Shown in pieces: positions 5,098 through 39,145 of a stretch of 64,000 bases of DNA. The DNA is taken from the NCBI GenBank assembly GCA_036399335.1, contig DASWNF010000014.1, forward strand, positions 108,033 to 172,032, read 5' to 3'. The notes below the pieces were generated by a model. The model saw only the letters and a list, made by a program, of their open reading frames with translations. It made no database searches and was not told the origin of the DNA. Origin of the DNA: Minisyncoccota bacterium. GTDB lineage: Bacteria; Patescibacteriota; Minisyncoccia; Phycocordibacterales; Phycocordibacteraceae. Position 1 is the first letter of the stretch; each line of letters begins with the position of its first letter. The translations under genes were made by a program, and so were the position numbers.

Positions 5098-5123
5098 AGA
5101 TATAGAAACTATACCAATACTAA

Positions 5124-5149
5124 TTGCTGGACTCTGTGATGTTGGAGCC
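5124..5149 (+). repeat. interspersed repeat copy C: TTGCTGGACTCTGTGATGTTGGAGCC
   Basis: Shortened copy of the consensus. Confidence 0.5.
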
Positions 5150-5205
5150 CTTTTACAGTATGCAATTAGAAGCCCCCGGGATGTTGGTCCCGGGGGCGAG
5201 GCGCT

Positions 5206-5853: not shown

Positions 5854-5979
5854 AACGCCCTCCTCAAAGGTCTATGGTTTAAGCCAGCTTCACGATAATA
5901 CACAATAGTGGATATGTATAGGACGATTGGGCCTGGGATGATGCCGAGGTTTTTATATACAAAACCGCCCCAATCATCG

Positions 5980-5996
5980 TTGCTGGGACGGGCTTC
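5980..5996 (+). repeat. degenerate copy (M) of the interspersed repeat: TTGCTGGGACGGGCTTC
   Basis: Left half plus GGGACG core only; intergenic. Confidence 0.25.
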
Positions 5997-6005
5997 ATGG
6001 TCTGA

Positions 6006-13928: not shown

Positions 13929-14170
13929 GAAATGCTTATTATTAGGGGTGTTGATACTGGGGAAACGAAACTCTATCCAGTATATATGCCGCGTAAGGGT
14001 CTGCCCACGAACTGATAACTCGGTTGCTGCACGACTTCTGCTTGGGGAGAACTATAAGCCCGTAAAAGCTTGCGTGGATAAGTAGTGGTGATTTTCATGA
14101 CTTGTACCCACCTATCCACTGAGCTTTTCATTGTTTATTCATAACTTCTCCCCAGCCTTATGCCTCTTGC
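13929..14170. promoter_or_regulatory. dnaA-dnaN intergenic region with DnaA-box-like sites (candidate oriC)
   Basis: CTTATCCAC (complement of GTGGATAAG), CTATCCACT and CTATCCAGT resemble the TTATCCACA consensus; AT-rich. Confidence 0.45.
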
Positions 14171-15544: not shown

Positions 15545-15818
15545 GCGCGCAGAAACGTATTACCTGATAAGAACCCGTATCCTGAATCGTAAGCGCGTAC
15601 TTTCTACCGGGGTTCATCGTTTCCAAAGTATACGCAGGTTTTTTCTTTAGTGAAGTTTTAGGGAATTTCTTACCCACCTGAGCGCAAGCTGTTATTAACC
15701 TGTGGATATCCTTAAATCCCGAGCCATGAATACCAGGTTTTATTGCCCCAAAACGTAATTTGTGGGAGAATGCTCGAAATTAACCATTCCCGACCTCAAA
15801 GCCGGATTTTAGAGATAT
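15545..15818. promoter_or_regulatory. rpmH-dnaA intergenic region with DnaA-box-like sites and an AT-rich stretch (candidate oriC or dnaA promoter region)
   Basis: TGTGGATAT (8/9 to TGTGGATAA) and TTACCCACC; A/T-rich segment near 15640-15700. Confidence 0.45.
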
Positions 15819-15971
15819 ATGCCTAAGCGAACGTACCAACCGAAGAAAAGGAAGCGCGCCCGAACCCACGGTTTCCTTGCCCGTACCGCGACCCCTGGAG
15901 GGCGCCGCGTGCTTCTTGCCCGCCGCCGCAAAGGACGCGCAAGCCTGACGGTTTCGAAGAAAGTAAGGTAA
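15819..15971 (+). CDS. rpmH: 50S ribosomal protein L34
   Basis: 50 aa [45 protein letters not shown]; not in the ORF track (<60 aa); directly upstream of rnpA. Confidence 0.9.
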
Positions 15972-15977
15972 TACGCC

Positions 15978-16304
15978 ATGTTTCCGCGTAAGCTTCGGCT
16001 TTCTCGTCGCGGTTTCGAGTCGGCTCGCGGCCTCAATAGGGCGGCGAGCCGTTACTTTTCTGTCTCCCACGGTCCCGCTCCCGAGGAAGGAGGTGCTGCC
16101 GTCGTAGTCTCAAAGAAGGTGGCGCGCCTCTCGGTTATGCGCCATCTCCTAAGGCGACGGGTCATGGCCGTCGCCCGCCCGTACGCGTCCCCCGAGCGAG
16201 CGCTTATCATCCATGTGCGTCCGGGTGCCGGGCAGGTGGCCTTCCCTCTGCTTCGGGATGAGCTTATTGGGCTATTACGGTCTATACTACCTGCACAACC
16301 ATAA
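15978..16304 (+). CDS. rnpA: RNase P protein component
   Basis: 108 aa basic protein; conserved rpmH-rnpA-yidC order. Confidence 0.85.
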   Translation: MFPRKLRLSRRGFESARGLNRAASRYFSVSHGPAPEEGGAAVVVSKKVARLSVMRHLLRRRVMAVARPYASPERALIIHVRPGAGQVAFPLLRDELIGLLRSILPAQP

Positions 16305-16313
16305 CGTCCCTCT

Positions 16314-17060
16314 ATGTTTTCTGCGTTTTTCCACAACTTCCTCTACGCCCCAATCTATAACCTGCTCGTATTCCTCGTAGGCCTCGTTCCTGGAGGAGAT
16401 GTCGGCCTTGCCGTCATCATCGCTACGGTCATCGTGAAGCTCATTATCATGCCGCTTTCCTTGCGCGCCGTACGGACGCAGCGCCAAATGAAGCTCATCG
16501 AGCCCCAGCTGAGGGCACTCAAGGAAACCCACAAGAATGACCGCGAGCGCCAGGCAAAGGAAATGCTTACGCTTTACCGTGAGCACAACATCCGCCCGTT
16601 CGCGAGCATCCTGGGCATCCTGATCCAGCTCCCTATAATCGTTGCGCTCTACTTCGTCTTTAGCCGTGAAGCGCTTCTTAATATTGATCCGTCGCTCCTC
16701 TATAGTTTCGTCGGCGTGCCGGAAACCATCTCTCCGCTCTTCCTCGGTACGTTCGTGGTCACCGGCTCAAGCGTTATCCTCGCCGTTCTCGCCGGCCTTG
16801 CACAGGCGGCACACGCCCGCCTATCCGTTCCTGTCCCAGACGCACCGGCAGCGGGAGCAGTGCGAAGCATGGGTGACGACTTCGGCCGGATCATGGCGAT
16901 GCAGGCGCGCTACATCCTCCCGGTTATCGTGGTGGTCATCGCCTACATAACCTCGGGCGCCGTTGCCCTCTATTTCATAACGAGCAGCCTGGTTGGCCTT
17001 CTCCAGGAGTGGGTGGTGCGAAGGATGAAGCATCCGGAGTCCCCTTCTTCGGCTGCGTAA
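16314..17060 (+). CDS. yidC: membrane protein insertase YidC (short, Gram-positive/Oxa1-like form)
   Basis: 248 aa; 5 TM helices; conserved after rnpA. Confidence 0.85.
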   Translation: MFSAFFHNFLYAPIYNLLVFLVGLVPGGDVGLAVIIATVIVKLIIMPLSLRAVRTQRQMKLIEPQLRALKETHKNDRERQAKEMLTLYREHNIRPFASILGILIQLPIIVALYFVFSREALLNIDPSLLYSFVGVPETISPLFLGTFVVTGSSVILAVLAGLAQAAHARLSVPVPDAPAAGAVRSMGDDFGRIMAMQARYILPVIVVVIAYITSGAVALYFITSSLVGLLQEWVVRRMKHPESPSSAA

Positions 17061-17113: not shown

Positions 17114-18340
17114 CTAGAGGTCGTAGAGCCAAAGCGCACCATTGTGCTTGTCGGTAAAAAGGAGGACGTCTTCGCCCGGGTCAGTCGTGAGGGCAATGGC
17201 GTCTATCGAGACGTCAGCGACTGCGCTCGGGTCGATAACGAGGGTCGCGAGGCGGTTGCCCATGTCGATTTCCCATATGCGGTCGGCGAACGTCACGGCT
17301 CCCTGGTACCAGAAGTCCGGCAGTCCGCGCGGCAGGCTCTTCGGCACGGCGCAGTACACGGAACCACTATCAGGTGCCCACGTACACTTCTCCGGTAAGG
17401 TAGCGACCGGAAGCGCCGTAGCCTGGCGCGTTGCCGTGTCGAAGACGGCAAGGCGAAGCGTGCCGCGGTCGATGTAGCTGTAGAGGACGAGGTTCCCCGC
17501 AGGGCTCGGAAGTATGGAGAGCCCGGCGAGCGGCCCTAGGATGCGGGTGAAGGCGCCGTTTGCGGTGCTGATGCGGAAGGCGTAGCCGCTCCGGAATACC
17601 GAAGCTTTCGTGTGCGCAAAGTAGTCGCCCTGGGTCGGGTGGACGATAATGGAGGAGAGGAGCGAGGTGAATAGCGTGCGGGCGTTCGTGCCGTCAGCGC
17701 GCGCGACCGAACCGACCGAACCGGCTGTGCCCGAAAGCATGGTAAAGAGCGTACTCGAGCCCACCGCCTGTGCCGCTGCCAGGTTTTGCTCGAGGAAGAA
17801 GCCCCCTTCCCCGCTCTCAGGGAGCACGTACGTTGCGACCTGCTCTGCGCCCGGCGTCCCGGCTGCGAAGCGCGCGTAGGCCATCGAGCCGCCAGGAAGC
17901 CATGAAACCCGTTGGACGCCCGGCAGGGTCTTGTTTGAAATGCGCACGAGGCTGCGTTCCTCTTTGAGGTAACGGTATATGTTGCCGCTCGCGCGGTCGA
18001 TGAAGCGGGCTTCCGTGTCGCGCACCTCGACCTCGACGAGGGCCGGCGTACCGGACGCCGTCTCGACGGTTTGGGTGGTCGTTGATATGCGCGGTATGGC
18101 AACCATGCCTTCGGCCACCGGCCGGTCCGTGATACGGATAAGGCGTGGTGCGAACTCGTCCCCTGCCCCGGAACTGATTTCAACAGGCCCCTCCTCGCTC
18201 ACGAGGCCGCTTCCCGTACCGCCGAACGGGTCGTCGGTTGCCGTAAGTTCACCCGAGTCGGCAAAGAGGAAGTATGCGCCGGCCACGAGCCCGAGGATGA
18301 CGATGATGCTCGCACTGATGATGAGTGTCCGTTTTCGCAT
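17114..18340 (-). CDS. membrane-anchored hypothetical protein, last gene of the T4SS-like operon
   Basis: Internal Met start gives an N-terminal TM helix (TLIISASIIVILGLVAGAYFLF); its start overlaps the stop of the upstream gene. Confidence 0.5.
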   Translation of the reverse strand: MRKRTLIISASIIVILGLVAGAYFLFADSGELTATDDPFGGTGSGLVSEEGPVEISSGAGDEFAPRLIRITDRPVAEGMVAIPRISTTTQTVETASGTPALVEVEVRDTEARFIDRASGNIYRYLKEERSLVRISNKTLPGVQRVSWLPGGSMAYARFAAGTPGAEQVATYVLPESGEGGFFLEQNLAAAQAVGSSTLFTMLSGTAGSVGSVARADGTNARTLFTSLLSSIIVHPTQGDYFAHTKASVFRSGYAFRISTANGAFTRILGPLAGLSILPSPAGNLVLYSYIDRGTLRLAVFDTATRQATALPVATLPEKCTWAPDSGSVYCAVPKSLPRGLPDFWYQGAVTFADRIWEIDMGNRLATLVIDPSAVADVSIDAIALTTDPGEDVLLFTDKHNGALWLYDL

Positions 18341-18342
18341 GC

Positions 18343-19359
18343 TTATGGCTCGCAACGCATGGTACCTGCGTAACACCTTGGAAGTGCGACTCCCACCGCG
18401 TCCCCGGGACAAAGGCTCGGATTTGCTGCTGCCCGTACCTTCCACGTGCCGCCGTCCGCGGTGCATGACTTCTGGAAGGCGAGGTAGCGCTCCTTGTCGC
18501 TTTCTCGGGGACCGTAGGTGCCAGTGTTCCCGGTCTTTTCAAGAGCGACGCTTGCCGTAAGTCCGCAATAGGCCGTGTATGCGGAACATCCGTCAGCATC
18601 GCAATCCCCCTTCCCTTTCGTGGTACAGGTTGTCGTGCACCCCTTACTCGTAGCGATGCCCTCATTCACCATAACCTTTGCCGTACATTGTGTGAGGAAG
18701 GTATCCAGCCCTGCCTTCGTGGGGAATACGCCCTTTTTAAGGGTCGTGCCGGTAACGGATCCGCTACCGAGCGATGTAATCGCATCCTGGCCACGTTTCT
18801 GCTCCGGTGTCTGCGGGATATCCGTAAGCGTGCGGCTTAATGACGAAAGGTCGAGCTTCAATTTCAGTATGTCAGGGTTTATGATGCCGAAAACGATAGC
18901 CGGGGAGAGCACCAGGAGAAGTCCGAGGAGTGAGCTTGAGATGAGGTGCTTCGCTTGTTCGTTATGCCCCACGCTGCCTTTATGGAACATGAAATATGCA
19001 CCCGCACGCATGATTTGGAGGACGGCAATGCCGGCTGCAATACCGATACAAAGGCGGTACAGGTAATTGAGGAAGTCGGGCAGAGTGTCTGGCTTTGACG
19101 CATCTTCAATGCCGGGAAGGTTCGTAAGCGGTACGAACTTATAATCGTCGCCCGTTGCCGCTGCGCCCGTTGCCGGGGTTTCGTCAGTTGCGGGCGGAGC
19201 CGCAGGATCGGCCGCCGGTTTTGGCGTTTCGTCAGTTGCAGGCGTCGCAGCTGCCGGTGCTTCCGTGGTAGGCTGCGCCTTCGTACCCTGGGCATGCAGT
19301 ACAAGCGGCATGCCGGCAACGAGAGCCGAGAGGATGAAGATAATGAGGTGCGTACGCAT
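18343..19359 (-). CDS. secreted/membrane protein with signal peptide, Pro/Thr-rich linker, two hydrophobic helices and a Cys-rich C-terminal domain (possible T4SS pilin-like component)
   Basis: Start at the internal Met MRTHLIIFILSALVAG (signal peptide); begins 2 nt after the stop of the upstream gene. Confidence 0.45.
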   Translation of the reverse strand: MRTHLIIFILSALVAGMPLVLHAQGTKAQPTTEAPAAATPATDETPKPAADPAAPPATDETPATGAAATGDDYKFVPLTNLPGIEDASKPDTLPDFLNYLYRLCIGIAAGIAVLQIMRAGAYFMFHKGSVGHNEQAKHLISSSLLGLLLVLSPAIVFGIINPDILKLKLDLSSLSRTLTDIPQTPEQKRGQDAITSLGSGSVTGTTLKKGVFPTKAGLDTFLTQCTAKVMVNEGIATSKGCTTTCTTKGKGDCDADGCSAYTAYCGLTASVALEKTGNTGTYGPRESDKERYLAFQKSCTADGGTWKVRAAANPSLCPGDAVGVALPRCYAGTMRCEP

Positions 19360-19363
19360 ATGG

Positions 19364-20350
19364 TTATAGGCCAAAGAAGCCGAGTGAGCTCTCGCCCTTG
19401 AACGTAATAGTAAGCCGCTGGCTCGCACTTTGTCCCGTATCGGGAACCTCGGCAAGTACTTGTACGAGTGCCGTCCCGCCCCTCGACCCCGAGGAGCGTA
19501 GAGTGATGTCCTGGTCATTGTCGCTTGCATCATCCCCCACGCTCCATGTGAGGAGTGGCCGGTCGGGGAAGAAGTACGGCACGGCACGGAAAGTTTCCTC
19601 CGTACCGACGAGTGCCGTATTTGCGGGGAGCGCCGTGCCGTACAGGGGGCCGAGTAGCGGGTCGTTGCGGTATACCCGGACGAACGGGTCGCTCGGCGCG
19701 ACAACGGTTGCCGCCTCAGCTACCACGGAACGGTCTTGGCTCGTCACCGTCACCGATATGCGCGCGTCGCGGTGCCTCACTGGGGCACTTGCCGAAAGTA
19801 CGGACTTCCCTATCCCGGATGCGCCCTGGAGGATCTGGTCGCCGTTCCGCCAGGTGTAGACCAAGCTTGCCGCAGGTATGGGCGCCCCTGAAGACGTGCG
19901 AAGGTCGGGGATGGCAACGAGACGGACGGCGCCTTCGGACGAGGTGAGCGCTCCTCCCTCATAGAAAGGATGCACCGTCGAATATGGCTCGACGACGAGT
20001 GCCACGTCCGCCGGGCGAATCGTCAGGCTCTTGGTGAAACTTTGGGCACCGGATGTCGCGCGTATGGTAATCGTGGTCACGGTGCCCGGGCCCCCGACGG
20101 TTACGTATGCGGGCTCCGCCCCGCTGCCTTCGGATACGACCGAGCCGTTTACGAGCACGGTCACTTTACTGGCGGAAAGGTCTATATACGTACTTTCCGG
20201 GATGATGGTCACGGTTTCATACGGCCGTGGGTACGACGGCATGATGGTTGCTGTAATCGGTTCGGTCCCAAGCATCTGCTGGGCCTGTGAGGCCGAGACT
20301 ATGCCGAAGCCTGCAGCGATAAGGAGCAGGGTCGCGAATGCACGCTTCAT
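19364..20350 (-). CDS. secreted hypothetical protein (328 aa)
   Basis: Signal peptide MKRAFATLLLIAAGFGIVSASQA; beta-rich composition. Confidence 0.55.
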   Translation of the reverse strand: MKRAFATLLLIAAGFGIVSASQAQQMLGTEPITATIMPSYPRPYETVTIIPESTYIDLSASKVTVLVNGSVVSEGSGAEPAYVTVGGPGTVTTITIRATSGAQSFTKSLTIRPADVALVVEPYSTVHPFYEGGALTSSEGAVRLVAIPDLRTSSGAPIPAASLVYTWRNGDQILQGASGIGKSVLSASAPVRHRDARISVTVTSQDRSVVAEAATVVAPSDPFVRVYRNDPLLGPLYGTALPANTALVGTEETFRAVPYFFPDRPLLTWSVGDDASDNDQDITLRSSGSRGGTALVQVLAEVPDTGQSASQRLTITFKGESSLGFFGL

Positions 20351-20404
20351 GCATACAGTATACCTGAGCGGCCCCGCAGCCGTTGCACCCTGCGGCGGAT
20401 AAGT

Positions 20405-21046
20405 TTACACGGCCTCGAGTTCGTCGGCCCGTTCGCGCCGCGCCGCGCCGTCCTTTGCGGTCGTAGGTACGCCCGGCCCGGGGGCTCTTGGCATGGGTGT
20501 CTTGGGGGCGTAGGAGTCGACCTTCGTCCAATCCTGGCGAGGGCGCGCTATAGGACGAGGCTCCGGTAGTGCGGCCCTCGATCCCTGTGGCTCCTCGGCT
20601 TCTCGTGCTTCTGGCATGCCTGCGGGTACGCGGCCGGATATCCTGGTCGGGAACATGCGGGTTTTTGCGGCCGCCTTTTCCTTAACCTCCTTTCTTTCTT
20701 TGGCTTTTTCGCGATCCTCCATACGCGTGCCTATGATCACGAGCGCGACTCCGAGCGTAAGCGCAGGAAGCGCGTTTACGATAGGGACGAGTTCCAATAC
20801 CGTACCGGTCATAATGCCCAGTACCTTGAGCCCCGCCTTCTTCCCCGTGAAGTAGTTGACCCCATCACAGAAGATGAACAGCCAAAGGGAGGCTATGAAT
20901 ATACCGATGAAGGTTACGCCTAAATTAATGACCTGTCCCAGGACAGGGATGAGGTTGATGAGGAACTGGACGCCGTCGAGAAAAAGTTCGACGGTAAGAA
21001 GGCTTATGGCTGAGGCGGTCCCTACGCGATACGTAACCTTATCCAT
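20405..21046 (-). CDS. polytopic membrane protein with Pro-rich C-terminal tail (T4SS-associated, unclassified)
   Basis: Four predicted TM helices; stop/start adjacent to the VirB4 C-terminal gene. Confidence 0.5.
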   Translation of the reverse strand: MDKVTYRVGTASAISLLTVELFLDGVQFLINLIPVLGQVINLGVTFIGIFIASLWLFIFCDGVNYFTGKKAGLKVLGIMTGTVLELVPIVNALPALTLGVALVIIGTRMEDREKAKERKEVKEKAAAKTRMFPTRISGRVPAGMPEAREAEEPQGSRAALPEPRPIARPRQDWTKVDSYAPKTPMPRAPGPGVPTTAKDGAARRERADELEAV

Positions 21047-21048
21047 GG

Positions 21049-22860
21049 CTACTCACTCCCATGCCGGTCTTTCTCGCGCTTGATGGCGAGGAGTTGCGAG
21101 GGGTCAGACGTAATGATCTGGTCTTCCGTGTATGAGGCGACGATTTTAATGGCGACATGCTTCATGCCGGCAAAGAATAGCCCCTCACCGACGTTTGATT
21201 CGAGAAGCAGGAACTTCTCTTCCTCGGTAAGGTTAAAGGTCTCTTGGAGCGTATCGATGACTGTTGGTGACTGCTTGAGCAGGAGCTGTATGGAGGAGTT
21301 GCTGAGGATAGGGCGACCGTACGGCGAACGGAGGAAGTCTTCCACGTCTTGGGTGATGGTGGCGAGCCCGAGGTAGTACTTACGTCCGCGCTTCGCAAGG
21401 CTGTAGAGGAAGGAGGCCGTGTCCTCCGACTTCATCATCCACCACGCCTCGTCGATGATAAGCAGGCGCTTCTTAAGCTCCTGGCGGACGGAGTTCCAGA
21501 TGTAGTGGGTAATGATGTACATCGCCACGGGCTTGAGCTCGTCTTCCATATCGCGCACCGAGAAAACGATGAACTGCTTCTTGATATCGATATTAGTCGG
21601 CTGGTTCAGGAAGCCCGACCAGGTACCGCGAGTGTATTTCGAGAGGCGGGTCACGAGCGATTCGCTGCCTTCCATGCCCGAGAGCACGCTTTCAAAGTCG
21701 GAAAGGAGCGGCGGCTCCATGCCGGTAAAGTCGGCATCGCCGGTAATGTCCTTGAGCGCATAGGTTTCGGTAATCGCGCGGTCGATGATGGCATCCTCTT
21801 CGGGGCTCAGCCCACCCAGCATGATGCGGAAAAGGCCGACGAGGTTAATGATGTTATTCCGCAGGATATCTGTCGGCTCTTCGTCTTCGCGCACGGGAGG
21901 GAGGTCGAACGGGTTGATGTGGTGCTCGCTCGAAAGCGAAATGTTGAACATGCGTCCGCCCGTTGCCTGGGCAAGGTACTCATACTCGCGCTCAGGGTCG
22001 ATGACGATGACCTCGGTGTCGAACATGAGCGAGCGCAAGATCTCGAGCTTCACGGCATAGGACTTCCCCGAACCCGACTTCGCAAAGACGACCGAGTTGT
22101 AGTTTTCGAGGGAGAACCGGTCAAACAGGATGAGCGACGAGTTGTGGCGGTTAATGCCGTAGAGGATGCCGCGGTCGCTCGAAAGGTCGAAGGAGACGAA
22201 GGGGAATATCGAAGAAAGCGGTGAAGAGTTCAGTTTTGAGTGGACGTTTAGCTCGTCGATGGCGAGCGGCAGGGTCGAGCGGAAACCCTGCTCCTGTTCA
22301 AAGAGCGCCGGCTTGGTATACACCAGCTTGGAGTCGAGGATACCGCGCACTTCGCCCTCGACCTTGTCGAGTTCTTCCTTCGTGCTCTCATAGAGGGTGA
22401 TATACAGGCCAACCTCGAAGAGGCGTTCCTGCGCCTGCTGCAGCGTGTCGCGCAAGTTCTCGAGGTCCTGGTACGCCGTGTCGAGCATCGGGTCGCGCAC
22501 GAGGCCTTTTTGTTCGCGCTCCATGATCTGGCTCTCGACTTCAGCGACCTTCTTCTGGAAATTGCGCAGCATGAGGCCGGTCTCAAGCGGATGGATGAAG
22601 ATGCCCACGTCGAAGACCTTGTCGAGGTTGATGATCGGCGTGAACCAGCCGTCGTTGAGGAAGCGAGGGTATGAAATGGTGTAGAACGAGCGGGCAATCT
22701 TCTCCCCGAGCTCGAGCTCGCGCGAAGCAACCTTGAGGGCGGCCGGGGCAATGGTATCGGCAAGGTCGAGCTTCCCTTCCGCATAGATGTCCTTCGGCAG
22801 GACCGGGGTAATTTTCACCTCGTCCTCCTTATTCCGGTTGAAAAAATCGAGTAGGGCCAT
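21049..22860 (-). CDS. VirB4/TrbE-family conjugal transfer ATPase, C-terminal ATPase part
   Basis: Walker A FAKSGSGKSY; Walker B LLIIDEAWWM; VirB4/CagE-like motifs; start MALLDFF lies 1 nt after the stop of the upstream N-terminal part. Confidence 0.8.
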   Translation of the reverse strand: MALLDFFNRNKEDEVKITPVLPKDIYAEGKLDLADTIAPAALKVASRELELGEKIARSFYTISYPRFLNDGWFTPIINLDKVFDVGIFIHPLETGLMLRNFQKKVAEVESQIMEREQKGLVRDPMLDTAYQDLENLRDTLQQAQERLFEVGLYITLYESTKEELDKVEGEVRGILDSKLVYTKPALFEQEQGFRSTLPLAIDELNVHSKLNSSPLSSIFPFVSFDLSSDRGILYGINRHNSSLILFDRFSLENYNSVVFAKSGSGKSYAVKLEILRSLMFDTEVIVIDPEREYEYLAQATGGRMFNISLSSEHHINPFDLPPVREDEEPTDILRNNIINLVGLFRIMLGGLSPEEDAIIDRAITETYALKDITGDADFTGMEPPLLSDFESVLSGMEGSESLVTRLSKYTRGTWSGFLNQPTNIDIKKQFIVFSVRDMEDELKPVAMYIITHYIWNSVRQELKKRLLIIDEAWWMMKSEDTASFLYSLAKRGRKYYLGLATITQDVEDFLRSPYGRPILSNSSIQLLLKQSPTVIDTLQETFNLTEEEKFLLLESNVGEGLFFAGMKHVAIKIVASYTEDQIITSDPSQLLAIKREKDRHGSE

Positions 22861-22861
22861 G

Positions 22862-23491
22862 TTATGCGAAATGAATAGGGTTTTCCATATCCCCCACGTT
22901 AAAGGAACGGTACAGGAGCTCAATAATCTCCTCGGTCCCGAGCGGCGCGGCGCGCACGCCCGCTGAGGCGAGCCCGTTCATGACCAATGACATGCGCTGC
23001 TCAAGCTGCACGCGGCTTTCTTCGAAGGAAGTGTCCTCGTTTGATTCACCCTTATCCTTTTTCCCGCTGAGGAAGGACAATCCGCTCGAGACCGATACCC
23101 CGCTCCCGCCCTCGTACGGGACGACGGCATAAAAGGTTTTCGTCATGATGTCCGCACCCTCGATGAAGTTGCGGATGAAGTTCGAGTACTCGCGCAGCTG
23201 CACGCGCATGAGTTCGCTTCCCTGGAGCGGCATACGCTCTTCGAGCAGGTTCAAGTACGGACGGATATCGGTTTTGCGTGAGTGGACGACAATCTGTACG
23301 GAGAAGTCGATGGTATTCAGGAACGTCTGGAAGCCGCCGATGATGGCGCGCTGCTCGTCTCCCGACTTGAGCGCGAAGTTGACCGACGAGCACATAAGGA
23401 TGCCGCGGTACCCGCCGCTCTTCAAAATGACGACGCCGCTGCGCACTTCTTCGACTGGCACGAATGACTGTGAAGCTTGGGAAGAAGGCAT
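22862..23491 (-). CDS. VirB4-family N-terminal domain protein (split VirB4, N-terminal part)
   Basis: ~209 aa resembling the N-terminal domain of TrbE/VirB4 (VILKSGGYRGILMCSSVNFALKS); TAA-C-ATG junction with the ATPase part. Confidence 0.6.
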   Translation of the reverse strand: MPSSQASQSFVPVEEVRSGVVILKSGGYRGILMCSSVNFALKSGDEQRAIIGGFQTFLNTIDFSVQIVVHSRKTDIRPYLNLLEERMPLQGSELMRVQLREYSNFIRNFIEGADIMTKTFYAVVPYEGGSGVSVSSGLSFLSGKKDKGESNEDTSFEESRVQLEQRMSLVMNGLASAGVRAAPLGTEEIIELLYRSFNVGDMENPIHFA

Positions 23492-23492
23492 A

Positions 23493-23903
23493 TTACGTGG
23501 TTGGGGCACCTGGGTTCTGGTCCTTAATATCAAGCGACCAGGCGAGCTCCTTCAGCTTTCCTTGGGTAAGTACGAGCTTTTCCCGCACCGGGGCTACGGG
23601 CGCCGCTACAGGCGCTGCCTCATGCTCCTGCTTCTTCCAGAGGTAGAGGCGGTCTTTTGTGTAGAAGGTAATGGCCGCCTCGATGATGTCGACGAAGCTC
23701 TTGTTGTTGATTTTATAAAAAGCGAGCGCTCCTGAGAATGCGGCCACGGGCAGCGCGAGCACGATGCCGACCATGAGCGGCAAGGAAAGCACGAGTATGG
23801 CGCACAAGCCGATGCCGCCGGCAAGATAGATGAATTGTTTGAGTGAAAGAGGACCGAATATCTTGTCCTCAACTTCAATGAACTGCGGCACCTGGTACTC
23901 CAT
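23493..23903 (-). CDS. PrgI/VirB3-like small membrane protein
   Basis: 136 aa with two TM helices, sitting directly upstream of VirB4 as in Gram-positive T4SS. Confidence 0.5.
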   Translation of the reverse strand: MEYQVPQFIEVEDKIFGPLSLKQFIYLAGGIGLCAILVLSLPLMVGIVLALPVAAFSGALAFYKINNKSFVDIIEAAITFYTKDRLYLWKKQEHEAAPVAAPVAPVREKLVLTQGKLKELAWSLDIKDQNPGAPTT

Positions 23904-23934
23904 AAACAGTAGTATACCGCACGCCTACCGACCC

Positions 23935-24810
23935 TTACTCGATGGCTTCGCGGTAGGGGTCGCTTCCGTACTCTTTCGTAATGGGCGTGTTCTCATACGT
24001 CCGGTCGATCGGCGTCAGGCGTACGGGCGCGAGCGCGGGAGGCGCATATGCAGACTCCGGATATGTCGGTGCGGGCTGGGACTGGGGCGCCGGTGGAGGC
24101 GGAGGTGCGTAGGTAACGGGCACCGACGCCGTCTGGAACGAGCGCGCAGGGCTTGCTGCCTGGCCTTCGAGGCCTTGGGAGGCGAGCTGCATGTCCCCGG
24201 CCATGGTACGCGCATGGGGATAGGTAGGAACCGGTACGTTCATATATATAGGAGCGCTCGCCGGTGCAGGCGTATATACCGGTACCGGCGGTGTCGGTAG
24301 AGGTGCGGGAGCCGGTGTCGGTGCGGCTACCGGCGGCGGCATGGGCTGATGTGGCCGTTGAGGTACCGGTTCCGCGGGCGTGCTCGCGGCAGGAGGTTTA
24401 GGTGGCTCCATACCCTCTCCCACCGCCATAGGTGGTACGGCAGGGCTTGGCCGACGCGGCGGCTCGGGCGTCGCAGGCCCGACGCGCTCCTCATCACGGA
24501 GCTTCTTGAACACCTGATCGTTTACGTCGGCCGTAAGGCTCCTAATGGTCGCGTCGTCAATGCCCCCCTCGCGGAGCGCACCCACGAATTCGTCGGGCGA
24601 GTATACGCCAAGCAGCATGAATATGTATGCGCGCTCGAAGGCCCCGGCGGCGTCAGCATGAAGGCTATGTTTCTGCGACAAACGCAACGAAACCGCATCG
24701 CGTTCCGGACTGCGCAAGAAATTCTGTATCGCAGGCGGAAGCTCCTCCATGAGGAGCTCGACTTGGTCACTGATACTTGTCGTTGAGACGTCGATCTCTT
24801 CTTCGGGCAT
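23935..24810 (-). CDS. proline-rich hypothetical protein (291 aa)
   Basis: Long PxP/PPPP low-complexity tracts; member of the T4SS-like operon. Confidence 0.5.
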   Translation of the reverse strand: MPEEEIDVSTTSISDQVELLMEELPPAIQNFLRSPERDAVSLRLSQKHSLHADAAGAFERAYIFMLLGVYSPDEFVGALREGGIDDATIRSLTADVNDQVFKKLRDEERVGPATPEPPRRPSPAVPPMAVGEGMEPPKPPAASTPAEPVPQRPHQPMPPPVAAPTPAPAPLPTPPVPVYTPAPASAPIYMNVPVPTYPHARTMAGDMQLASQGLEGQAASPARSFQTASVPVTYAPPPPPAPQSQPAPTYPESAYAPPALAPVRLTPIDRTYENTPITKEYGSDPYREAIE

Positions 24811-24837
24811 AGTTTCATATTACACGAGGGTGACTAC

Positions 24838-27285
24838 TTAGTGGTCGGCTTTGTCATGGCCGTGGTCGTCACCGTGGTCGTCACCGTGCCCGTCTTCCTT
24901 GTCGGCTGCCTTTGTCGCGCGTTCGGCGTGCTCTTTTATCTCATGCGTATCCTTGCCTGACTTCGCTATCTCACCCTTAAGTTCGTCGAAGAGCTTCTCG
25001 GACTTCGATTTCTTCATCTCTTTCTTGATCGCTTCATACGCATGGTGGCGCGCACGACCCTTGGCGGTGATAGAGGTTCCACTCGACTCATGCAAATCGT
25101 TAGCGTACCGGGTCATTGGCGCTTTCTTCGCCTTCTCTATGTTCGCTTCAGCATCCTTTATGTCCTTATCGAAGTCCTTCATCGCCTGGTCGTGGTCTTT
25201 CTGCCGGTCGGCGATCGCTTCCTGCCTATTCCGTATGTCATCGCGTTCTTTCGTCGCTGTGGCGCGGTGCACCTCAAGGAGGGCGTTAAGGGCCTCTTGT
25301 TCGCGCTCTACTGCGGCCCTCCGGGCCGCTTGAATTTCCGGCTTGTCGTCATCAGCCTCTGCCGCCGCATTCGCAGCCGCGTTCAACTGCGCCATTTGGG
25401 CTTCACGCTGCGCCGCGCGCGTCTTCTCGATTTCCGCATACTCGTCCTTGAGCTTGTTCGCCGCCTTCTCCATGGTTCGCTTCTCGTCTGCCCAAGTCTT
25501 TTGTGCTGTTTCTTTCTTGGTGCCAATTGTTTCCTTTTTCTGCTCGTAGTGAGTTTGGATGGCTTTGTCGTCATCAGTCTGCTTGAGCGACTTCGCGTAC
25601 TTCACGCGAGCTTCTTCGCCGTGATGGACCAGGTCTGCATACCCGCCCTTATGGGCCTTACCAAGATCTCCCACCTGCTTACCGAGCGTTCCACCGAGTG
25701 CGGTAGCACGGAAGTCGAAACTCGCCTTACCGCCGTAATCAGCGATGCTGGCCATACGGTAACCCATCTCAGTGTGCCCCCAGTCTGTTGCGCGGATGCG
25801 CTCGCTTGCCTTCGAGGCGGCCCGGCCGACGGTCCTCCGTCCCATGAAGCCCATGGCGCCTATGCTGGTTTTTCCTGCAGTCGCTATCGCAAACGACGCC
25901 CCGGCCGCACCGAATTTTCGTGCAGCCGCTAGTGAGGCCAGGAGGAAGCCGATGACGAGCGCGTATATGAGAATGACGCCCATCATGCCGGTCTTGCCCG
26001 TCGTGAGTGCCTGCATTAAGGAGCCTCGGGTGCCCATGCCTGCAAGCCCGTCGGTAATTTTAAGGCTGATGAGCATGAGGAGGAGCATCACCGGAGCGAA
26101 GAACGACTGGTTGATGAGGTTATGCCACCACTGCTCGCCAATCTTCCGGAGTGGCGGTATTGCCATACCGGCAAAGCCTATAGGTGCGGTGACCATAAGG
26201 AAGGTAAGGGTCACTGCGCGGATGATGAGCATGATAGACGCGCCGAAAAGTACGCCAGCGGCAATAAACGCTAGGATGGTAGTCGCGAGGAGTGACGTCG
26301 TGCTTATGTCGAATATGCTTTCGTCATTCCTGAATAGGGAAGAAATTCCCGTACTCTCCATAATGTGGGCGGAAATTCCATAGTTAATGGCGCATCCTTG
26401 CTCACTCTTCCCGTCCTCAGAAATACCACCGATCTCGCTCCCGGCATTAACGTCGTCCGAAAAACACGGGTCAGTATTCGCCTGGTTGTATACGACGGAG
26501 CTTAGGCCGTTCGCCGTGTCGATTACCGCCTCTGCGGCAAACAGGCTGAAGTTCATGAGTACGGCAAAGATAATGAGGAAAGGAAGCGTCTTCTTTGCCG
26601 GGTACGAGTGGAGGTCGAGGATGGTCGAGATCCCGATGAATATGAAGCCGAAGAGGAGGAGCATGTTCCCGATGTCCCGGAGGATCGTCCATGCGGCAAG
26701 GAGCCCCTCGGAGTTCCCGATAAGCGTGGAGAACTGGAAGACGGTCTTCAAGATGACCCAGTTAAAGAGGATGCCGGAAATACCCAGTAGGAAGGTCGCA
26801 AACGTAAGCGCAATGCCGGCCATGCCGCGCGCAAGACAGTTCGGCCAACTCGATGGGTCTGTTGCCGAACAACCGTCTCCCTCCGGTGGTGCTCCTTGCG
26901 CGGTGGAAGTAATAGTCATCTCGCCGGTCACTGAGTCATCCGCTACCTTAACGACGGCACCGCCCGTCGGAATTTCCGTGCTCGACGCACCTACGGGAGT
27001 CCCGGCAGCGTCCTTCACGGCGCATGAAGTTGATGGCGCCATGTCCGGCAAGGGAGAAGGTGAGGATACGCACGTTTCCGTATTTCCATTCGCCTCCTTA
27101 CACTCTACAGTCGTGGCTCCGGATAATGCGCTTGTCGTACTTACGCATTGCCGTCCCTTGTCGTCCGTAAAACGTGTTTGGGCATTACTGATATAAGGCA
27201 CGAGTACGAAAAAGACGGCAATTAAGGCAACCCAAAGCGTGCTTTTCGTTACACTGCTCCTAGGTAGGGTGAGGAATCTAGGCAT
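24838..27285 (-). CDS. large polytopic membrane protein, VirB6/TrbL-like, with C-terminal charged coiled-coil and HGDDHGDDHGHD tail
   Basis: ~815 aa from the internal Met MPRFLTLP; signal/TM, then at least 6 TM helices, then a K/E/D-rich coiled coil; position typical of VirB6 in PrgI-VirB4 clusters. Confidence 0.55.
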   Translation of the reverse strand: MPRFLTLPRSSVTKSTLWVALIAVFFVLVPYISNAQTRFTDDKGRQCVSTTSALSGATTVECKEANGNTETCVSSPSPLPDMAPSTSCAVKDAAGTPVGASSTEIPTGGAVVKVADDSVTGEMTITSTAQGAPPEGDGCSATDPSSWPNCLARGMAGIALTFATFLLGISGILFNWVILKTVFQFSTLIGNSEGLLAAWTILRDIGNMLLLFGFIFIGISTILDLHSYPAKKTLPFLIIFAVLMNFSLFAAEAVIDTANGLSSVVYNQANTDPCFSDDVNAGSEIGGISEDGKSEQGCAINYGISAHIMESTGISSLFRNDESIFDISTTSLLATTILAFIAAGVLFGASIMLIIRAVTLTFLMVTAPIGFAGMAIPPLRKIGEQWWHNLINQSFFAPVMLLLMLISLKITDGLAGMGTRGSLMQALTTGKTGMMGVILIYALVIGFLLASLAAARKFGAAGASFAIATAGKTSIGAMGFMGRRTVGRAASKASERIRATDWGHTEMGYRMASIADYGGKASFDFRATALGGTLGKQVGDLGKAHKGGYADLVHHGEEARVKYAKSLKQTDDDKAIQTHYEQKKETIGTKKETAQKTWADEKRTMEKAANKLKDEYAEIEKTRAAQREAQMAQLNAAANAAAEADDDKPEIQAARRAAVEREQEALNALLEVHRATATKERDDIRNRQEAIADRQKDHDQAMKDFDKDIKDAEANIEKAKKAPMTRYANDLHESSGTSITAKGRARHHAYEAIKKEMKKSKSEKLFDELKGEIAKSGKDTHEIKEHAERATKAADKEDGHGDDHGDDHGHDKADH

Positions 27286-27289
27286 GTGT

Positions 27290-28696
27290 TTATGTCTCGC
27301 ACGAAGCGGCAAGGCGTCTCATTTCTGAATAGAAACTGCCGGGGCGTGCGTCTCCAGTGTCTGCTGCTTCCACTTCGCCTTGGGCGAGCGCGCTTAAACC
27401 GCGCATAAGCGCCTGGAAACGACTGACAAGCGCATTTACGGCAACAGGGTCGTTCGCGCCCGAGGTAACCATCGCATTCTTATCGGTTTCTATCCGGTCG
27501 AGTTCGGCAAGCGTACGGTTCGCCTCGGCAAGCCGCTCGGTTGCGCGTCCGTATATGGCATCTGCTGCCTCACGGTCTCCGCCGGTGCACCGTTGTCGGG
27601 CAGCGTTGGCTGCGTCGGCGATGCGCTGCCAGTCCGCCCGGTATTTCGTAACCTGGCTCCGCACGTCCCGGATGCCTTCCGTAAACCCGGAGCTGAGGCT
27701 CGCTGAGAAATCAGTCGCACTACTGAGGAACGAGCGGCCACCTCCGCTCGTAGGCTCGGACACTCCTGAAAGCCCGTTCCCGCCAAGGACCTTGCCCACC
27801 ATCTGGGTCATAAGGGCTCCGACTATCTCATTTATGGAATCTGCGACCTCGAGTTGCCGCAAGGGCGAGTTGACGGTGATGCCAAGAGTTTCTTCAATCA
27901 TCGCGCCTGGAGTTCGGATACTGCATTTGGCATTCGGCTCCTTCTGTTGTAGCGAAACCTTATTATTGGCGACAGATTTGCCGCCTGCAGTCGTTGCGCT
28001 GGCAGCGGACTTGTTGGCTGCGGCGATGGTCTTAGCCGGATCTGCATTCGGCCCGCACGGACCGCGCCATGAAAGGAAGCCGTTGCCCCAACCGAGTTCG
28101 GTCATCCGGGTCTCAAGCTGTTTGTCGACTTCTGCAAAGAGTTCCCGGCGTGCGAGCTGGTACCTGCCGTACGGGTTGTTTGCCGGGTTCTGGCTCTCGC
28201 ACATCCATCCATCAAGCGAGAAGTCCCCGCCGCCGTAGCAGTCGCGATACGGGTGCCGCGCATCAAATCCGTAGCTGCTCGTTGTGCGGTAGAACTCATC
28301 GCGGAGCGCATTGCGGAGTTGGTCCTGGAACGGTGCGCGTATGGAAAGGCCGGTGTTGTCGACGGCGACCTTGTCGAGGCCATAGATGAAGTCATCGGCA
28401 ATGGTGTCGGCAAGGTTCCCGAGGTTGCGGTTTAAATCGGTTACGAAGGCGGGCGAACCCTGGAAACCAGAGTTTATCCACGTAACAATGCTCTGGGTCA
28501 TCGACTGGATGATGGTTTTCGCAGCCATCCATGCGGCAGCGTCGAGCACCTGTTCAAGGAGGCGCGGCGCGTCGCCGACGATAGCTACGGGGAGGGCGTG
28601 CGCCTTCGGGGTTACGGGAGCGTACGGTGCGTACGCGAAAGATGCCACGAGAATGGTGCACGCCACACCTGCGAATGTTTTCTTTAAGGTGTTCAT
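27290..28696 (-). CDS. secreted hypothetical protein (468 aa)
   Basis: Signal peptide; start overlaps the upstream gene stop by 4 nt (ATGA). Confidence 0.55.
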   Translation of the reverse strand: MNTLKKTFAGVACTILVASFAYAPYAPVTPKAHALPVAIVGDAPRLLEQVLDAAAWMAAKTIIQSMTQSIVTWINSGFQGSPAFVTDLNRNLGNLADTIADDFIYGLDKVAVDNTGLSIRAPFQDQLRNALRDEFYRTTSSYGFDARHPYRDCYGGGDFSLDGWMCESQNPANNPYGRYQLARRELFAEVDKQLETRMTELGWGNGFLSWRGPCGPNADPAKTIAAANKSAASATTAGGKSVANNKVSLQQKEPNAKCSIRTPGAMIEETLGITVNSPLRQLEVADSINEIVGALMTQMVGKVLGGNGLSGVSEPTSGGGRSFLSSATDFSASLSSGFTEGIRDVRSQVTKYRADWQRIADAANAARQRCTGGDREAADAIYGRATERLAEANRTLAELDRIETDKNAMVTSGANDPVAVNALVSRFQALMRGLSALAQGEVEAADTGDARPGSFYSEMRRLAASCET

Positions 28697-29685
28697 TGCT
28701 CTTGTTCGCGACGCACGGTGTCGACAATATAGAACCCGGGATTCCCCGGTAGCGGTTCACCCTGAAGAATCACTTCTCCGGCAATTTGGTCGAACGAGAG
28801 AAGGATATCGGTTCGTGCGGGGAGGAGTACCGAGAGCGCTCCCATCGTGAGGAGGGGGTCAGTCTTGTACGTGCTTACGGCCTTAGCTGCACGCCCCGCT
28901 TGTTCGAAGGCGCGCACGAGACGGAGGTGGCTTTCGACGAGTCCCGGGGGCGCAGGAACGGCGAGAAGCGCGCGCGCCGCGGCGAGGTATTGTCCGCCGA
29001 GGACATCAAGCCGTTCGGCTGCGGCCTCGTCGCCCTGCTCTATGACCGCTTGGGTAAGGAGGAACATGTCCGAGTTAGGTGCCGTGGGAATAGCAATATC
29101 GAGCGCCCGTTCCACATTGCCCGCATAGGTCGTTGCTGAGCCGAAGGCGTCAGTGCGCATCGATACCCGTGTGTACGAGGACGTAAGGGAGGCTGCCGCC
29201 TTGCGGGTGAACTCACCGAGGAGCTTCGTTACGACCGCCTCTTTAGAGGAATCATCGAGGGGCTCCCCGGTATTTGCGCGCATGTACTCCTCAAAGAACG
29301 ACCGTGAGAATTGCTCCGTGAAGCTTCCCGGTGCCGGCGGTTCGCCGGGGATGTCTTCGGTCGCCGCGTTGTTTGTCGGGAGTTCAGCAGCGAGCGAAAC
29401 CGGCGTTAGGAGCCCTTGGCGTACCGCCTCTCCGTCCGTAATGCCGTCGCCGTCCGTATCCGCAGTATTGCTGTCGGTGCCGTACAGCACTTCTTGCCAG
29501 TCGGGAAGCTTGTCGTTGTCCGTGTCTTTTGCGACGTAATCAGCAAGGAGTTCGTCAGTCAGTGCGGCGTTAACCGTCTTAGTATTCGGCGCACCGATAC
29601 CCGGGAGAACATACCCTCCTACGACAAGAAGCAGGGCAATAAGTGATGCTCCACCGATGCGCACATTTCGTGAAGATATGGGCAT
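28693..29685 (-). CDS. membrane-anchored protein with Ca-binding-like DxDxDG repeats, first gene of the operon
   Basis: N-terminal TM; DTDNDKLPDW and DTDGDGITDGEA motifs. Confidence 0.5.
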   Translation of the reverse strand: MPISSRNVRIGGASLIALLLVVGGYVLPGIGAPNTKTVNAALTDELLADYVAKDTDNDKLPDWQEVLYGTDSNTADTDGDGITDGEAVRQGLLTPVSLAAELPTNNAATEDIPGEPPAPGSFTEQFSRSFFEEYMRANTGEPLDDSSKEAVVTKLLGEFTRKAAASLTSSYTRVSMRTDAFGSATTYAGNVERALDIAIPTAPNSDMFLLTQAVIEQGDEAAAERLDVLGGQYLAAARALLAVPAPPGLVESHLRLVRAFEQAGRAAKAVSTYKTDPLLTMGALSVLLPARTDILLSFDQIAGEVILQGEPLPGNPGFYIVDTVRREQEQ

Positions 29686-29876
29686 AAATGCTAGGTAAAT
29701 ACTAGCATGAACAGGTCATGAATGTGGAAAACAGGTGTACAACGTTGTATAACTCATCTGACAACCACCTAATAAACATAGGGACAGCTCTGTATAAGTG
29801 CCCCTATCGCAGGGCATACTGAGTGGAAACCTTGGGGATAAAACCTTCCAAACCCGAAAAAGCGGGGATACGTGAC

Positions 29877-30668
29877 CTATTTTATGTAGGAAAGAAGCCG
29901 CAACCAGTCGGCCAGGGATAAGTCTTCCGAGCGGGTCTTTTCGGAAATGTTTGCGGTGGCAAGTGATTTACGTACGTGCTCCGGAGGATAATGGAGCGCG
30001 AGGTTGCCGCCTAATTGCTTGCGTTTGTGCGCAAACCCGGCGCGAACTAGGTTGAAGAACGCGGATTCCCCTTCGGCATTCGCGAAAGCGTCCGGGTTAA
30101 TGTCCCGAATGGCCAATACTGCGGAGTCTACGTTTGGCGCCGGGCGAAATGCGCCGCGGGGCACCGTAAAGCAGTATTCAGGCTTCCCGAATACCTTTAC
30201 CGATAGCGAAAGGAGGCTTTCTTTGGGCCGTTTTTCGTCCAAGCGGGCGATGCGCTCAGCGACCTCCTTCTGTACCAGGAGCGTCATCGATTGGGGCTTG
30301 TTAGGCGCCGTCAGGAAGGTGCGGATGATCTCACCGGTAATGTAGTACGGGATATTGGCTATAAGGGCATACGGGCGTGGGAGCGAAGCGGTGTCGAAAG
30401 CCCGGATATCCTCATGGATAACCGTTAGCTTCCCTGCCCCGATTTCGCTTGCAAAGGTTTCCCGTAAGGGCGCGATGAGTTCATCGTCAGCCTCCACGGC
30501 TATCACGCGGTAGCCAGCCCCGAGGAGCGCGCGCGTGAGCATACCCGTTCCGGGACCGATCTCGAGCACGGGGACGCCTGCGGGTACCTGCGCAACGTTT
30601 ACGATACGTTCCGCGATTTGCGGATGCATGAGGAAGTTTTGACCGAGTGACTTTTTTGGGAGCGGCAT
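29877..30668 (-). CDS. rsmA: 16S rRNA (adenine1518/1519-N6)-dimethyltransferase RsmA/KsgA
   Basis: SLGQNFL and LEIGPGTGMLT SAM motifs; start set at the internal Met MPLPKK, which abuts the uvrD stop; the 5' ORF extension overlaps uvrD and is rejected. Confidence 0.85.
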   Translation of the reverse strand: MPLPKKSLGQNFLMHPQIAERIVNVAQVPAGVPVLEIGPGTGMLTRALLGAGYRVIAVEADDELIAPLRETFASEIGAGKLTVIHEDIRAFDTASLPRPYALIANIPYYITGEIIRTFLTAPNKPQSMTLLVQKEVAERIARLDEKRPKESLLSLSVKVFGKPEYCFTVPRGAFRPAPNVDSAVLAIRDINPDAFANAEGESAFFNLVRAGFAHKRKQLGGNLALHYPPEHVRKSLATANISEKTRSEDLSLADWLRLLSYIK

Positions 30669-30669
30669 A

Positions 30670-39031: not shown

Positions 39032-39145
39032 TGAGCCTACCTTACCACACCTTGACTATTTATGCAAGTGTACCGAAAAAGCGGAGCGGTCAGTCTCGAG
39101 CCTGAGCTAAACATTGTGCGAAGCTCCAGATGCTACACTTTTACC

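Follow-up and report, generated by a model that had tools for sequence, protein, structure and literature searches.

Type IV secretion systems (T4SSs) of Patescibacteria are known both from comparative genomics and from the genetics of a cultivated episymbiont. A survey of 3,035 Patescibacteria genomes detected a monophyletic VirB4 clade, nested within MPF_FATA, in 2,407 of them (Quinonero-Coronel et al. 2025, Microb Genom, PMC12102498). TrsD was the most frequent partner of virB4, and PrgI/VirB3, VirB6, and VirB2-like pilins were encoded near virB4 (PMC12102498). Relaxases were almost absent from Patescibacteria, and in Paceibacteria, virB4 was located near dnaA, dnaN, rnpA, ksgA, and rpmH (PMC12102498). 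In Southlakia epibionticum ML1, the T4SS is encoded by SEML1_0006-0019 (Wang et al. 2023, Cell, PMC10633639). The system and its pilins were essential for epibiotic growth in this species, the only one tested, and neither a coupling protein nor a relaxase was recognised (PMC10633639). Few envelope machines are conserved in this huge and largely uncultivated bacterial radiation, and the Patescibacteria T4SS is one of them. Here, we describe a cluster of 11 genes in a stretch of 64,000 nucleotides (nt; in the following, the window) from contig DASWNF010000014.1 of a Minisyncoccota bacterium (assembly GCA_036399335.1), to which an earlier reading of the bare DNA letters (the sequence-only reading) had drawn attention. 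We consider it likely that this cluster encodes a real chromosomal, relaxase-free T4SS of the ultrasmall candidate phyla radiation (CPR)/Patescibacteria, here of Paceibacteria, and no conjugation apparatus. Judged by gene content, domains, and genomic context, it is a member of the published Patescibacteria kind.

As read from the encoded proteins, the cluster combines a monoderm-type (MPF_FATA-like) VirB3/VirB4/VirB6 membrane core with a single VirB2-like pilin. A mechanical listing of open reading frames (ORFs) returned 11 successive minus-strand ORFs, which were numbered g01 to g11 along this strand from 29685 to 17114 and fall into two modules, A and B (see below). All coordinates are positions in the window, and protein lengths are in amino acids (aa).

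28693-29685, minus strand: g01, 330 aa, N-terminal anchor and putative TSP3-like Ca-binding repeats; first gene of module A
27290-28696, minus strand: g02, 468 aa, predicted secreted all-alpha protein
24838-27285, minus strand: g03, 815 aa, putative "extended" VirB6/TrbL-like polytopic membrane protein
23935-24810, minus strand: g04, 291 aa, proline-rich protein
23493-23903, minus strand: g05, 136 aa, PrgI/VirB3-like small membrane protein; first gene of module B
22862-23491, minus strand: g06, 209 aa, VirB4 N-terminal domain as its own protein (TrsD/TraC-like)
21049-22860, minus strand: g07, 603 aa, VirB4 ATPase body of the Gram-positive (MPF_FATA) type
20405-21046, minus strand: g08, 213 aa, small multi-pass membrane protein
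19364-20350, minus strand: g09, 328 aa, predicted secreted protein with three tandem immunoglobulin (Ig)-like domains
18343-19359, minus strand: g10, 338 aa, putative VirB2-like T4SS pilin
17114-18340, minus strand: g11, 408 aa, membrane anchor and predicted TolB-like (PD40) propeller; last gene, convergent with yidC

Genes called independently on the source contig (JGI metagenome 3300034138, Ga0334955_000011) and on a second assembly (Logan SRR10954984) were these same 11, in agreement with the 11 tightly packed minus-strand genes of the sequence-only reading. According to the coordinates, junctions spanned from a 4-nt overlap (g01/g02) to a 54-nt gap (g08/g09). The remaining gaps measured 4 nt (g02/g03), 27 nt (g03/g04), 31 nt (g04/g05), 1 nt (g05/g06), 1 nt (g06/g07, TAA-c-ATG), 2 nt (g07/g08), 4 nt (g09/g10), and 2 nt (g10/g11). 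For g03, g10, and g11, the real starts are most likely 27285, 19359, and 18340 instead of the longest-ORF starts. A scan for sigma-70 promoters yielded fewer sites than shuffled sequence did, a terminator scan was uninformative, and an Rfam scan returned four tRNAs and nothing else.

With the T4SSs of the Patescibacteria clade (PMC12102498), the locus has in common a VirB4 of MPF_FATA affinity, a TrsD-like neighbour, PrgI/VirB3, VirB6, a PF18895 pilin, and the dnaA/dnaN/rnpA/ksgA/rpmH context, as well as the lack of a relaxase and of a nearby type IV coupling protein (T4CP). The system as such has already been published, in the survey (PMC12102498), in the Southlakia study (PMC10633639), and in a 2025 FEMS review (PMC12857230), and what is added here is descriptive: fold classes for g02, g09, and g11, the two modules, and a hypervariable Cys-rich extension of the pilin. 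The main text of the survey does not contain the six unannotated accessory proteins, the two-module structure, or the long extension of a single pilin (PMC12102498).

The strongest family assignment was obtained for the ATPase. g07 matched the NCBIfam model conju_CD1110 with 377.6 bits (E = 1.2e-112; cutoff, 325 bits) and the Pfam family P-loop_TraG (PF19044) with an E value of 2.5e-26, so that the VirB4-family ATPase proposed earlier was confirmed by formal search. Its nearest solved structure was the Gram-positive Thermoanaerobacter VirB4 (4AG5; E = 1.5e-44), with R388 TrwK at 5e-8, and on direct reading both Walker A (AKSGSGKS) and Walker B (LLIIDE) were intact. g06 and g07 matched successive parts of conju_CD1110 (positions 4-119 and 182-733, respectively), and since they tile one model, the two ORFs together make up one canonical VirB4, as the sequence-only reading had implied in speaking of a split VirB4. 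g06 also matched positions 101-195 of VirB4_plasma and, weakly, TrsD (E = 0.02); it carries the precomputed Pfam label TraC-like (PF26593), and it has no solved relative. Its stop codon is separated by one base from the ATG of g07, indicating start-stop coupling.

Conservation was assessed in a set of 82 loci, comprising 80 relatives with 75 to 88% VirB4 identity and two copies of the source locus, which were searched by tblastn with all window proteins. g07 was conserved at this level in at least 80 species-level genomes, and g06 was detected directly upstream of virB4 in 81 of the 82 loci. These data bear on the notion that the cluster is a degenerating, nonfunctional T4SS, in which a frameshift would have split VirB4 and the ORFs lacking annotation would be decaying genes. 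Such decay would fit a VirB4 in two ORFs, six ORFs without a family, and scores of the VirB6-like protein and the pilin below their cutoffs. However, the start-stop-coupled split recurred in nearly all related species as well as in two independent assemblies, and it corresponds to the known TrsD arrangement (PMC12102498). ORF lengths and order were likewise conserved among relatives, the catalytic motifs were intact, and homologues of g09 were more than 50% identical across at least 120 clusters. We rejected a decaying remnant on these grounds of synteny and conservation across relatives and regard it as extremely improbable; judged by its alignment to the VirB4 models, the g06/g07 split is a TrsD/TraC-like arrangement and no frameshift.

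Among the remaining core components, g05 matched PrgI (PF12666) above the cutoff (E = 5.3e-10; 40.1 bits against a cutoff of 27), as anticipated by the earlier description of a small PrgI-like protein, and was present in 78 of the 82 loci. The VirB6-like protein and the pilin were assigned via their orthologues, of which 27 to 55 sequences per family were scanned. g03 of the window itself had no VirB6/TrbL match in Pfam or NCBIfam, and library and PDB-sequence profile searches produced weak SMC-type or coiled-coil matches only. Among its orthologues, 6 of 46 matched TrbL/VirB6 (PF04610; best E value, 1.9e-7) and 1 of 46 matched TrbL_4. The protein consists of a signal or anchor segment, a Cys-containing ectodomain, ∼7 transmembrane (TM) helices, a charged coiled-coil region of ∼290 aa, and a His/Asp-rich tail; direct reading gave 8 hydrophobic segments and the tail GHGDDHGDDHGHDKADH. 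Through its orthologues, g03 is thus best described as an "extended VirB6." The sequence-only reading had called it an ∼815-aa VirB6/TrbL-like protein with a His/Asp-rich tail; the family name was supported by PF04610 and TrbL_4 in orthologues and by no match of the window protein, and the tail was read directly.

Likewise, g10 matched T4SS_pilin (PF18895) below the cutoff (E = 3e-4), and 36 of 42 orthologues matched this family (best E value, 3e-11) and 19 of 42 matched TrbC/VirB2 (PF04956). By way of these orthologues, the protein described earlier as pilin-like is identified as a putative VirB2-like pilin. It is composed of a signal peptide, a Pro/Thr/Ala-rich linker, a two-helix hydrophobic hairpin (residues ∼75 to 165), and a C-terminal extension (18343-18870) of 176 aa with 10 Cys residues. 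Across the 42 orthologues, the extension had a median length of 164 aa and a mostly even number of Cys residues. Median pairwise identity among 16 close relatives was 54% in the hairpin and 18% in the extension. A search with the family profile revealed no second pilin gene in the window.

The operon is embedded in housekeeping genes on both sides:

30670-32595, minus strand: uvrD, upstream flank (29877-32595; Pfam UvrD-helicase on the source contig)
29877-30629, minus strand: ksgA/rsmA, upstream flank (Pfam RrnaAD on the source contig)
16314-17060, plus strand: yidC, downstream flank (Pfam on the source contig)
15978-16304, plus strand: rnpA, downstream flank (Pfam on the source contig)
15820-15957, plus strand: rpmH, downstream flank (identified from sequence)
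14171-15544, minus strand: dnaA, downstream flank (Pfam on the source contig)
12828-13928, minus strand: dnaN, downstream flank (Pfam on the source contig)

The yidC and rsmA-uvrD flanks named in the sequence-only reading were thus recovered, with rnpA, rpmH, dnaA, and dnaN beyond yidC. The order uvrD-ksgA-g01...g11-yidC-rnpA-dnaA-dnaN recurred across dozens of Paceibacteria species, and most relatives shared the flanks. Together with the VirB4 identity and the intact Walker motifs, this recurrence speaks for fixation and purifying selection. The 80 relatives all came from metagenome-assembled genome records, whose titles mostly named Paceibacterota, Parcubacteria, Kaiserbacteria, or a different Patescibacteria group, and NCBI lists the window proteins VGB97_04015 and VGB97_04050 under "Candidatus Paceibacterota bacterium." According to these VirB4 relatives and protein names, the organism belongs to the class Paceibacteria, and the earlier likening to Saccharibacteria had to be abandoned. 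A chromosomal Gram-positive-type T4SS of CPR bacteria, as proposed there, is consistent with the VirB4 homology, the fixed housekeeping context, and the published survey alike.

No relaxase or T4CP (VirD4/TcpA) family was found among the ORFs scanned across the 64-kb window, nor did the window contain an origin of transfer (oriT) or a repeat-bounded element. Its sole integrase-family gene (39062-40057), 9.4 kb upstream of the operon, encodes an XerC/D-type tyrosine recombinase with SAM_1 and catalytic domains, which looks like a housekeeping gene. This agrees with the earlier statement that VirD4, relaxase, oriT-like, and mobile-element genes were missing next to the operon. We weighed these data against the possibility that the cluster is the transfer module of an integrative and conjugative element (ICE), or a freshly domesticated remnant of one, with relaxase, T4CP, and integrase located outside the region. 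The VirB4 family is typified by Firmicutes conjugative elements (CD1110/CTn2), and 9.4 kb upstream there is a gene for a tyrosine recombinase, both as expected for an ICE. Yet the recombinase has the XerC/D-type architecture, the G+C content of the cluster (0.56 to 0.60) matches that of the neighbouring housekeeping genes, and of the 3,035 Patescibacteria genomes surveyed, no more than 103 had relaxases (PMC12102498). In dozens of species the cluster lies at this very place, between ksgA and yidC-dnaA, with 75 to 88% VirB4 identity, which argues for vertical inheritance and against a mobile island. An ICE was rejected on account of this conserved synteny and appears highly improbable to us.

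The synteny also revealed that the cluster consists of two evolutionary modules: module A, g01 to g04 around VirB6, and module B, g05 to g11 around VirB3, VirB4, and the pilin. The uvrD-ksgA flank was kept beside module A in relatives, and the downstream flank (12828-17060) was kept beside module B in nearly all loci. In a sister clade, 19 of 20 loci (L020 to L039, the exception being L037) still had g05 to g11 beside yidC-dnaA, and profiles of g02 and g03 detected nothing credible within 10 kb upstream of module B in these 19 loci. Three sister-clade loci were scanned, in which the upstream space was occupied by TIM, PGK, RecJ, RNase H, ComEC, an unnamed gene, and an M50 peptidase (e.g., L030:227-8827); these housekeeping genes stand in place of module A and ksgA/uvrD. 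Since module B occurs there without module A upstream, the "11-gene operon" represents two units that are adjacent here.

In a scan of the window proteins, 6 of the 11 (g01, g02, g04, g08, g09, and g11) had no Pfam or NCBIfam family. Orthologue scans added family names for VirB6 and the pilin only and yielded nothing useful for g02, g08, and g11, and family profiles of the cluster members identified no paralogues elsewhere in the window. g01, with a single hydrophobic segment (residues 10 to 28), had tblastn matches in 26 of the 82 loci. The Ca-binding repeats attributed to it by the sequence-only reading were matched, although weakly: TSP3_bac (PF18884) scored below the cutoff (E = 5.6e-4), and the TSP3 region of CglD/MtsD reached an E value of 1e-5. 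g02 carries the invariant N-terminal motifs WINSGFxGSPAFVTDL and TPG and a C-terminal three-helix bundle, and some of its orthologues bear added adhesin-type domains. Its family profile met only coiled-coil noise among PDB sequences. We regard g02 as a candidate surface or tip protein that is possibly VirB5-like. g04 lacked a signal peptide, TM segments, and family matches. It comprises a conserved N-terminal domain of ∼100 aa, a linker with 19% proline on direct reading, in keeping with its earlier designation as proline-rich, and a C-terminal DPYRE, in which D284, P285, Y286, and E288 were invariant in an alignment of 27 sequences. This DPYRE might act as a short peptide by which g04 docks onto a partner in the cytoplasm, for instance VirB4.

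The three remaining proteins are encoded in module B. Alignment of g08 revealed an Asp that is nearly invariant within the first hydrophobic segment and a conserved E..P...P pattern in one of the later segments; the tail is charged and disordered. With a profile derived from this alignment, counterparts were detected in 60 of the 82 loci, and in the loci examined they always followed virB4 directly. Of the unannotated members, g09 was the one detected in the largest number of loci, and its AlphaFold2 model (pLDDT, 85.6) displayed three tandem Ig-like beta-sandwiches, which matched generic Ig/FN3 adhesion-type domains only and no T4SS component. g11 of the window had no library match, and its tblastn matches covered 68 of the 82 loci. 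TolB accounted for 12 of the 14 matches of its family profile to PDB sequences (E = 0.007 to 0.07), and 2 of 55 orthologues matched PD40, which suggests a membrane-anchored extracytoplasmic TolB-like beta-propeller.

A VirB8-like or VirB1-like component found no sequence match among the cluster members or their orthologues. As VirB8-like candidates, g11 was rejected since its profile points to TolB and not to an NTF2-like fold, and g08 since it is multi-pass instead of bitopic; the models of g02 and g09, the two members modelled, were not NTF2-like. An M23 peptidase gene (32854-33726, plus strand) is located ∼3 kb upstream of the operon, and its product is a candidate VirB1-like wall hydrolase. 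In Paceibacteria, VirB1 homologues are associated with virB4 (PMC12102498), whereas this peptidase, at 3 kb distance, is the sole candidate here.

By analogy with Southlakia, the system probably functions as a host-contact conduit and not in conjugation. VirB4, docked on PrgI/VirB3 and VirB6, would power the extraction and polymerisation of the pilin, and the resulting tube or short pilus would cross the single membrane and the thin wall. The exported proteins g01 (Ca-binding), g02 (all-alpha), g09 (three-Ig), and g11 (TolB-like) may constitute the extracellular part, or decorate it, and make contact with the host cell, with the hypervariable, disulfide-rich C-terminal domain of the pilin serving as a lineage-specific host-recognition surface. 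Through this conduit, macromolecules or signals might move between episymbiont and host. Export or surface exposure of the accessory proteins is indicated by signal or anchor segments, the Ig-like domains of g09, the TolB-like profile matches of g11, the adhesin-type domains added in g02 orthologues, and the even Cys numbers and hypervariability of the pilin extension. A pilus conduit was put forward as a hypothesis in the 2025 FEMS review (PMC12857230), and tubular structures at the parasite-host interface, possibly T4SS pili, were reported together with host-RNA feeding in a 2026 preprint (bioRxiv 10.64898/2026.06.21.733656).

Several points weigh against this interpretation. g03 and g10 of the window both scored below Pfam cutoffs, and their family calls rest on orthologues. 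The C-terminal extension of the pilin might be removed in maturation, as in TrbC-type pilins. Within the cluster, neither a VirB8-like nor a VirB1-like component was recognised, the M23 peptidase being 3 kb off, and the roles of the 6 family-less proteins are guesses from fold class. The mechanism is drawn from homology and from the genetics of a different class, Saccharimonadia. Finally, VirD4-like genes are located far from virB4 in most Patescibacteria (PMC12102498), and a coupling protein could be encoded elsewhere in the genome, the region covered here being 64 kb of a contig of 314 kb.

A more specific form of the host-contact conduit would be a "decorated pilus," assembled from a single VirB2-like pilin of which each subunit carries an outward, fast-evolving, disulfide-bonded C-terminal domain, and complemented by exported g09, g11, and g02, for host recognition and host-symbiont transfer. 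We offer this form tentatively and think it rather unlikely to hold as a whole. To our knowledge, no decorated-pilus structure of this kind has been described in any T4SS. It would differ from the route to surface variability taken by Saccharimonadia, in which arrays of short divergent pilins are found.

Alternatively, the cluster might be a DNA-uptake (competence-type) T4SS like Helicobacter ComB or archaeal Ced, importing host or environmental DNA as a source of nucleotides or genes. The lack of a relaxase and a T4CP in the window would be shared with ComB, and VirB4 had weak partial NCBIfam matches to CedB (E = 5.7e-9) and CedD (E = 2e-3), two archaeal ATPases of DNA import, although these were limited to the shared P-loop region and far below cutoff. 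Gene neighbourhoods can be read in the same direction: comM (33988-35277, minus strand; Mg-chelatase-like) is located 4.3 kb upstream of the operon, module B of the sister clade lies ∼2 kb downstream of comEC and ∼4.5 kb from recJ, and comF, recG, and radA are found beside virB4 in the class ABY1 (PMC12102498). However, deletion of comEC in Southlakia ends competence but not viability (PMC12857230). As comEC is dispensable there and the T4SS is essential, its essential role in that species is not natural transformation. Competence of Southlakia has been ascribed to type IV pili and ComEC, and the window has a type IV pilus cluster of its own (55.6 to 62.1 kb). On balance, DNA uptake seems improbable to us. 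The sequence-only reading had favoured DNA uptake or host interaction over conjugation; its host-interaction and nonconjugative parts held, and the uptake part was weakened by the comEC genetics of Southlakia (PMC12857230).

A DnaA-box search gave no cluster that would place oriC, and GC skew tracked gene strand and did not place the origin either. The window contained 17 one-mismatch DnaA-box matches (6.8 expected). Two of these 9-mers, TTTTCCACA at 29723 and TTATCCCCA at 29833, are located on the operon strand of the 191-bp ksgA-g01 intergenic region (29686-29876). If oriC were located in the dnaA-rpmH gap (15545-15819), which is only an inference, the T4SS operon, ksgA, and uvrD would be oriented head-on to replication, and rpmH-rnpA-yidC would be co-directional with the rightward fork.

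Further features of the window lie outside the operon. The type IV pilus cluster (55635-62120) encodes a PilB-like ATPase (583 aa), a PilC-like platform protein (403 aa), two small prepilin-like proteins, and a 587-aa protein; the first four were assigned by reading N-terminal sequences alone, and the last by a weak match to DUF7305. Between the upstream flank of the operon and the XerC/D-like recombinase gene (39062-40057), a 523-aa family-less protein (36472-38043, minus strand) is encoded beside an NYN-domain (RNase-like) protein (38106-38621, minus strand). Four clustered tRNA genes (44292-45298) are followed by a pair of adjoining genes (45701-48180) for paralogous secreted proteins of 390 and 389 aa, both of which combine a PG_binding_1 domain with DUF4398 repeats. 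At the other end, a stretch of lower G+C content (1255-6000; 0.50 versus ∼0.58 to 0.60) may be a small variable island; it encodes a GIY-YIG nuclease-domain protein, a helix-turn-helix protein, a GNAT acetyltransferase, and four family-less ORFs.

The locus represents no new kind of system, and although T4SS biology is an important question, it is no more testable here than in the published examples. Nevertheless, with its 11 genes, one of them for a pilin, it exemplifies the Paceibacteria version in clean and compact form, and it draws attention to six conserved proteins that present profile libraries cannot name. A single pilin, 11 genes, and strongly conserved VirB4 and g09 would make it a sensible starting point for structural studies or heterologous expression.

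Compared with T4SSs of other groups, the locus shares features with the conjugative systems of monoderms (MPF_FATA: Prg/Pcf of pCF10, CTn2 CD1110 of C. difficile, and Trs of pGO1), which have the nearest VirB4 family, a PrgI-type VirB3, the order VirB6-VirB3-VirB4, no outer-membrane core genes, and, in pGO1, a separate TrsD-like N-terminal protein. Unlike these systems, it is chromosomally fixed, with no relaxase, T4CP, oriT, or mobile context in the window, and neither a VirB8-like (PrgL/TraM) nor a VirB1-like (PrgK) gene could be recognised in the cluster; conversely, it has a VirB2-like pilin, which they lack. Bordetella Ptl, Brucella VirB, Helicobacter ComB, and archaeal Ced operate with no dedicated coupling protein beside VirB4 and demonstrate protein secretion or DNA import by T4SSs without a relaxase. 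They are mostly diderm systems with VirB7/9/10 cores (Ced being archaeal), and their VirB4 subfamily is unrelated to the present one, which had weak P-loop-level matches only to CedB and CedD.

The Southlakia T4SS differs in several details. It has six short pilins (∼100 to 185 aa) in a divergent array, whereas the present locus has a single pilin of 338 aa that carries a C-terminal domain. Its virB4 is followed by a phage-tail-lysozyme/glucosaminidase gene and a gene for a 1,113-aa protein, whereas here a small TM protein, the three-Ig protein, and the TolB-like propeller follow. Essentiality was demonstrated in Southlakia. In both, however, the T4SS is origin-proximal (at the start of chromosome numbering in Southlakia) and lacks a recognisable T4CP or relaxase, the core order is VirB6-like protein, PrgI, a protein of ∼290 aa, and VirB4, an exported Ig-type (PEGA in Southlakia) protein is encoded downstream, and the pilins belong to PF18895.

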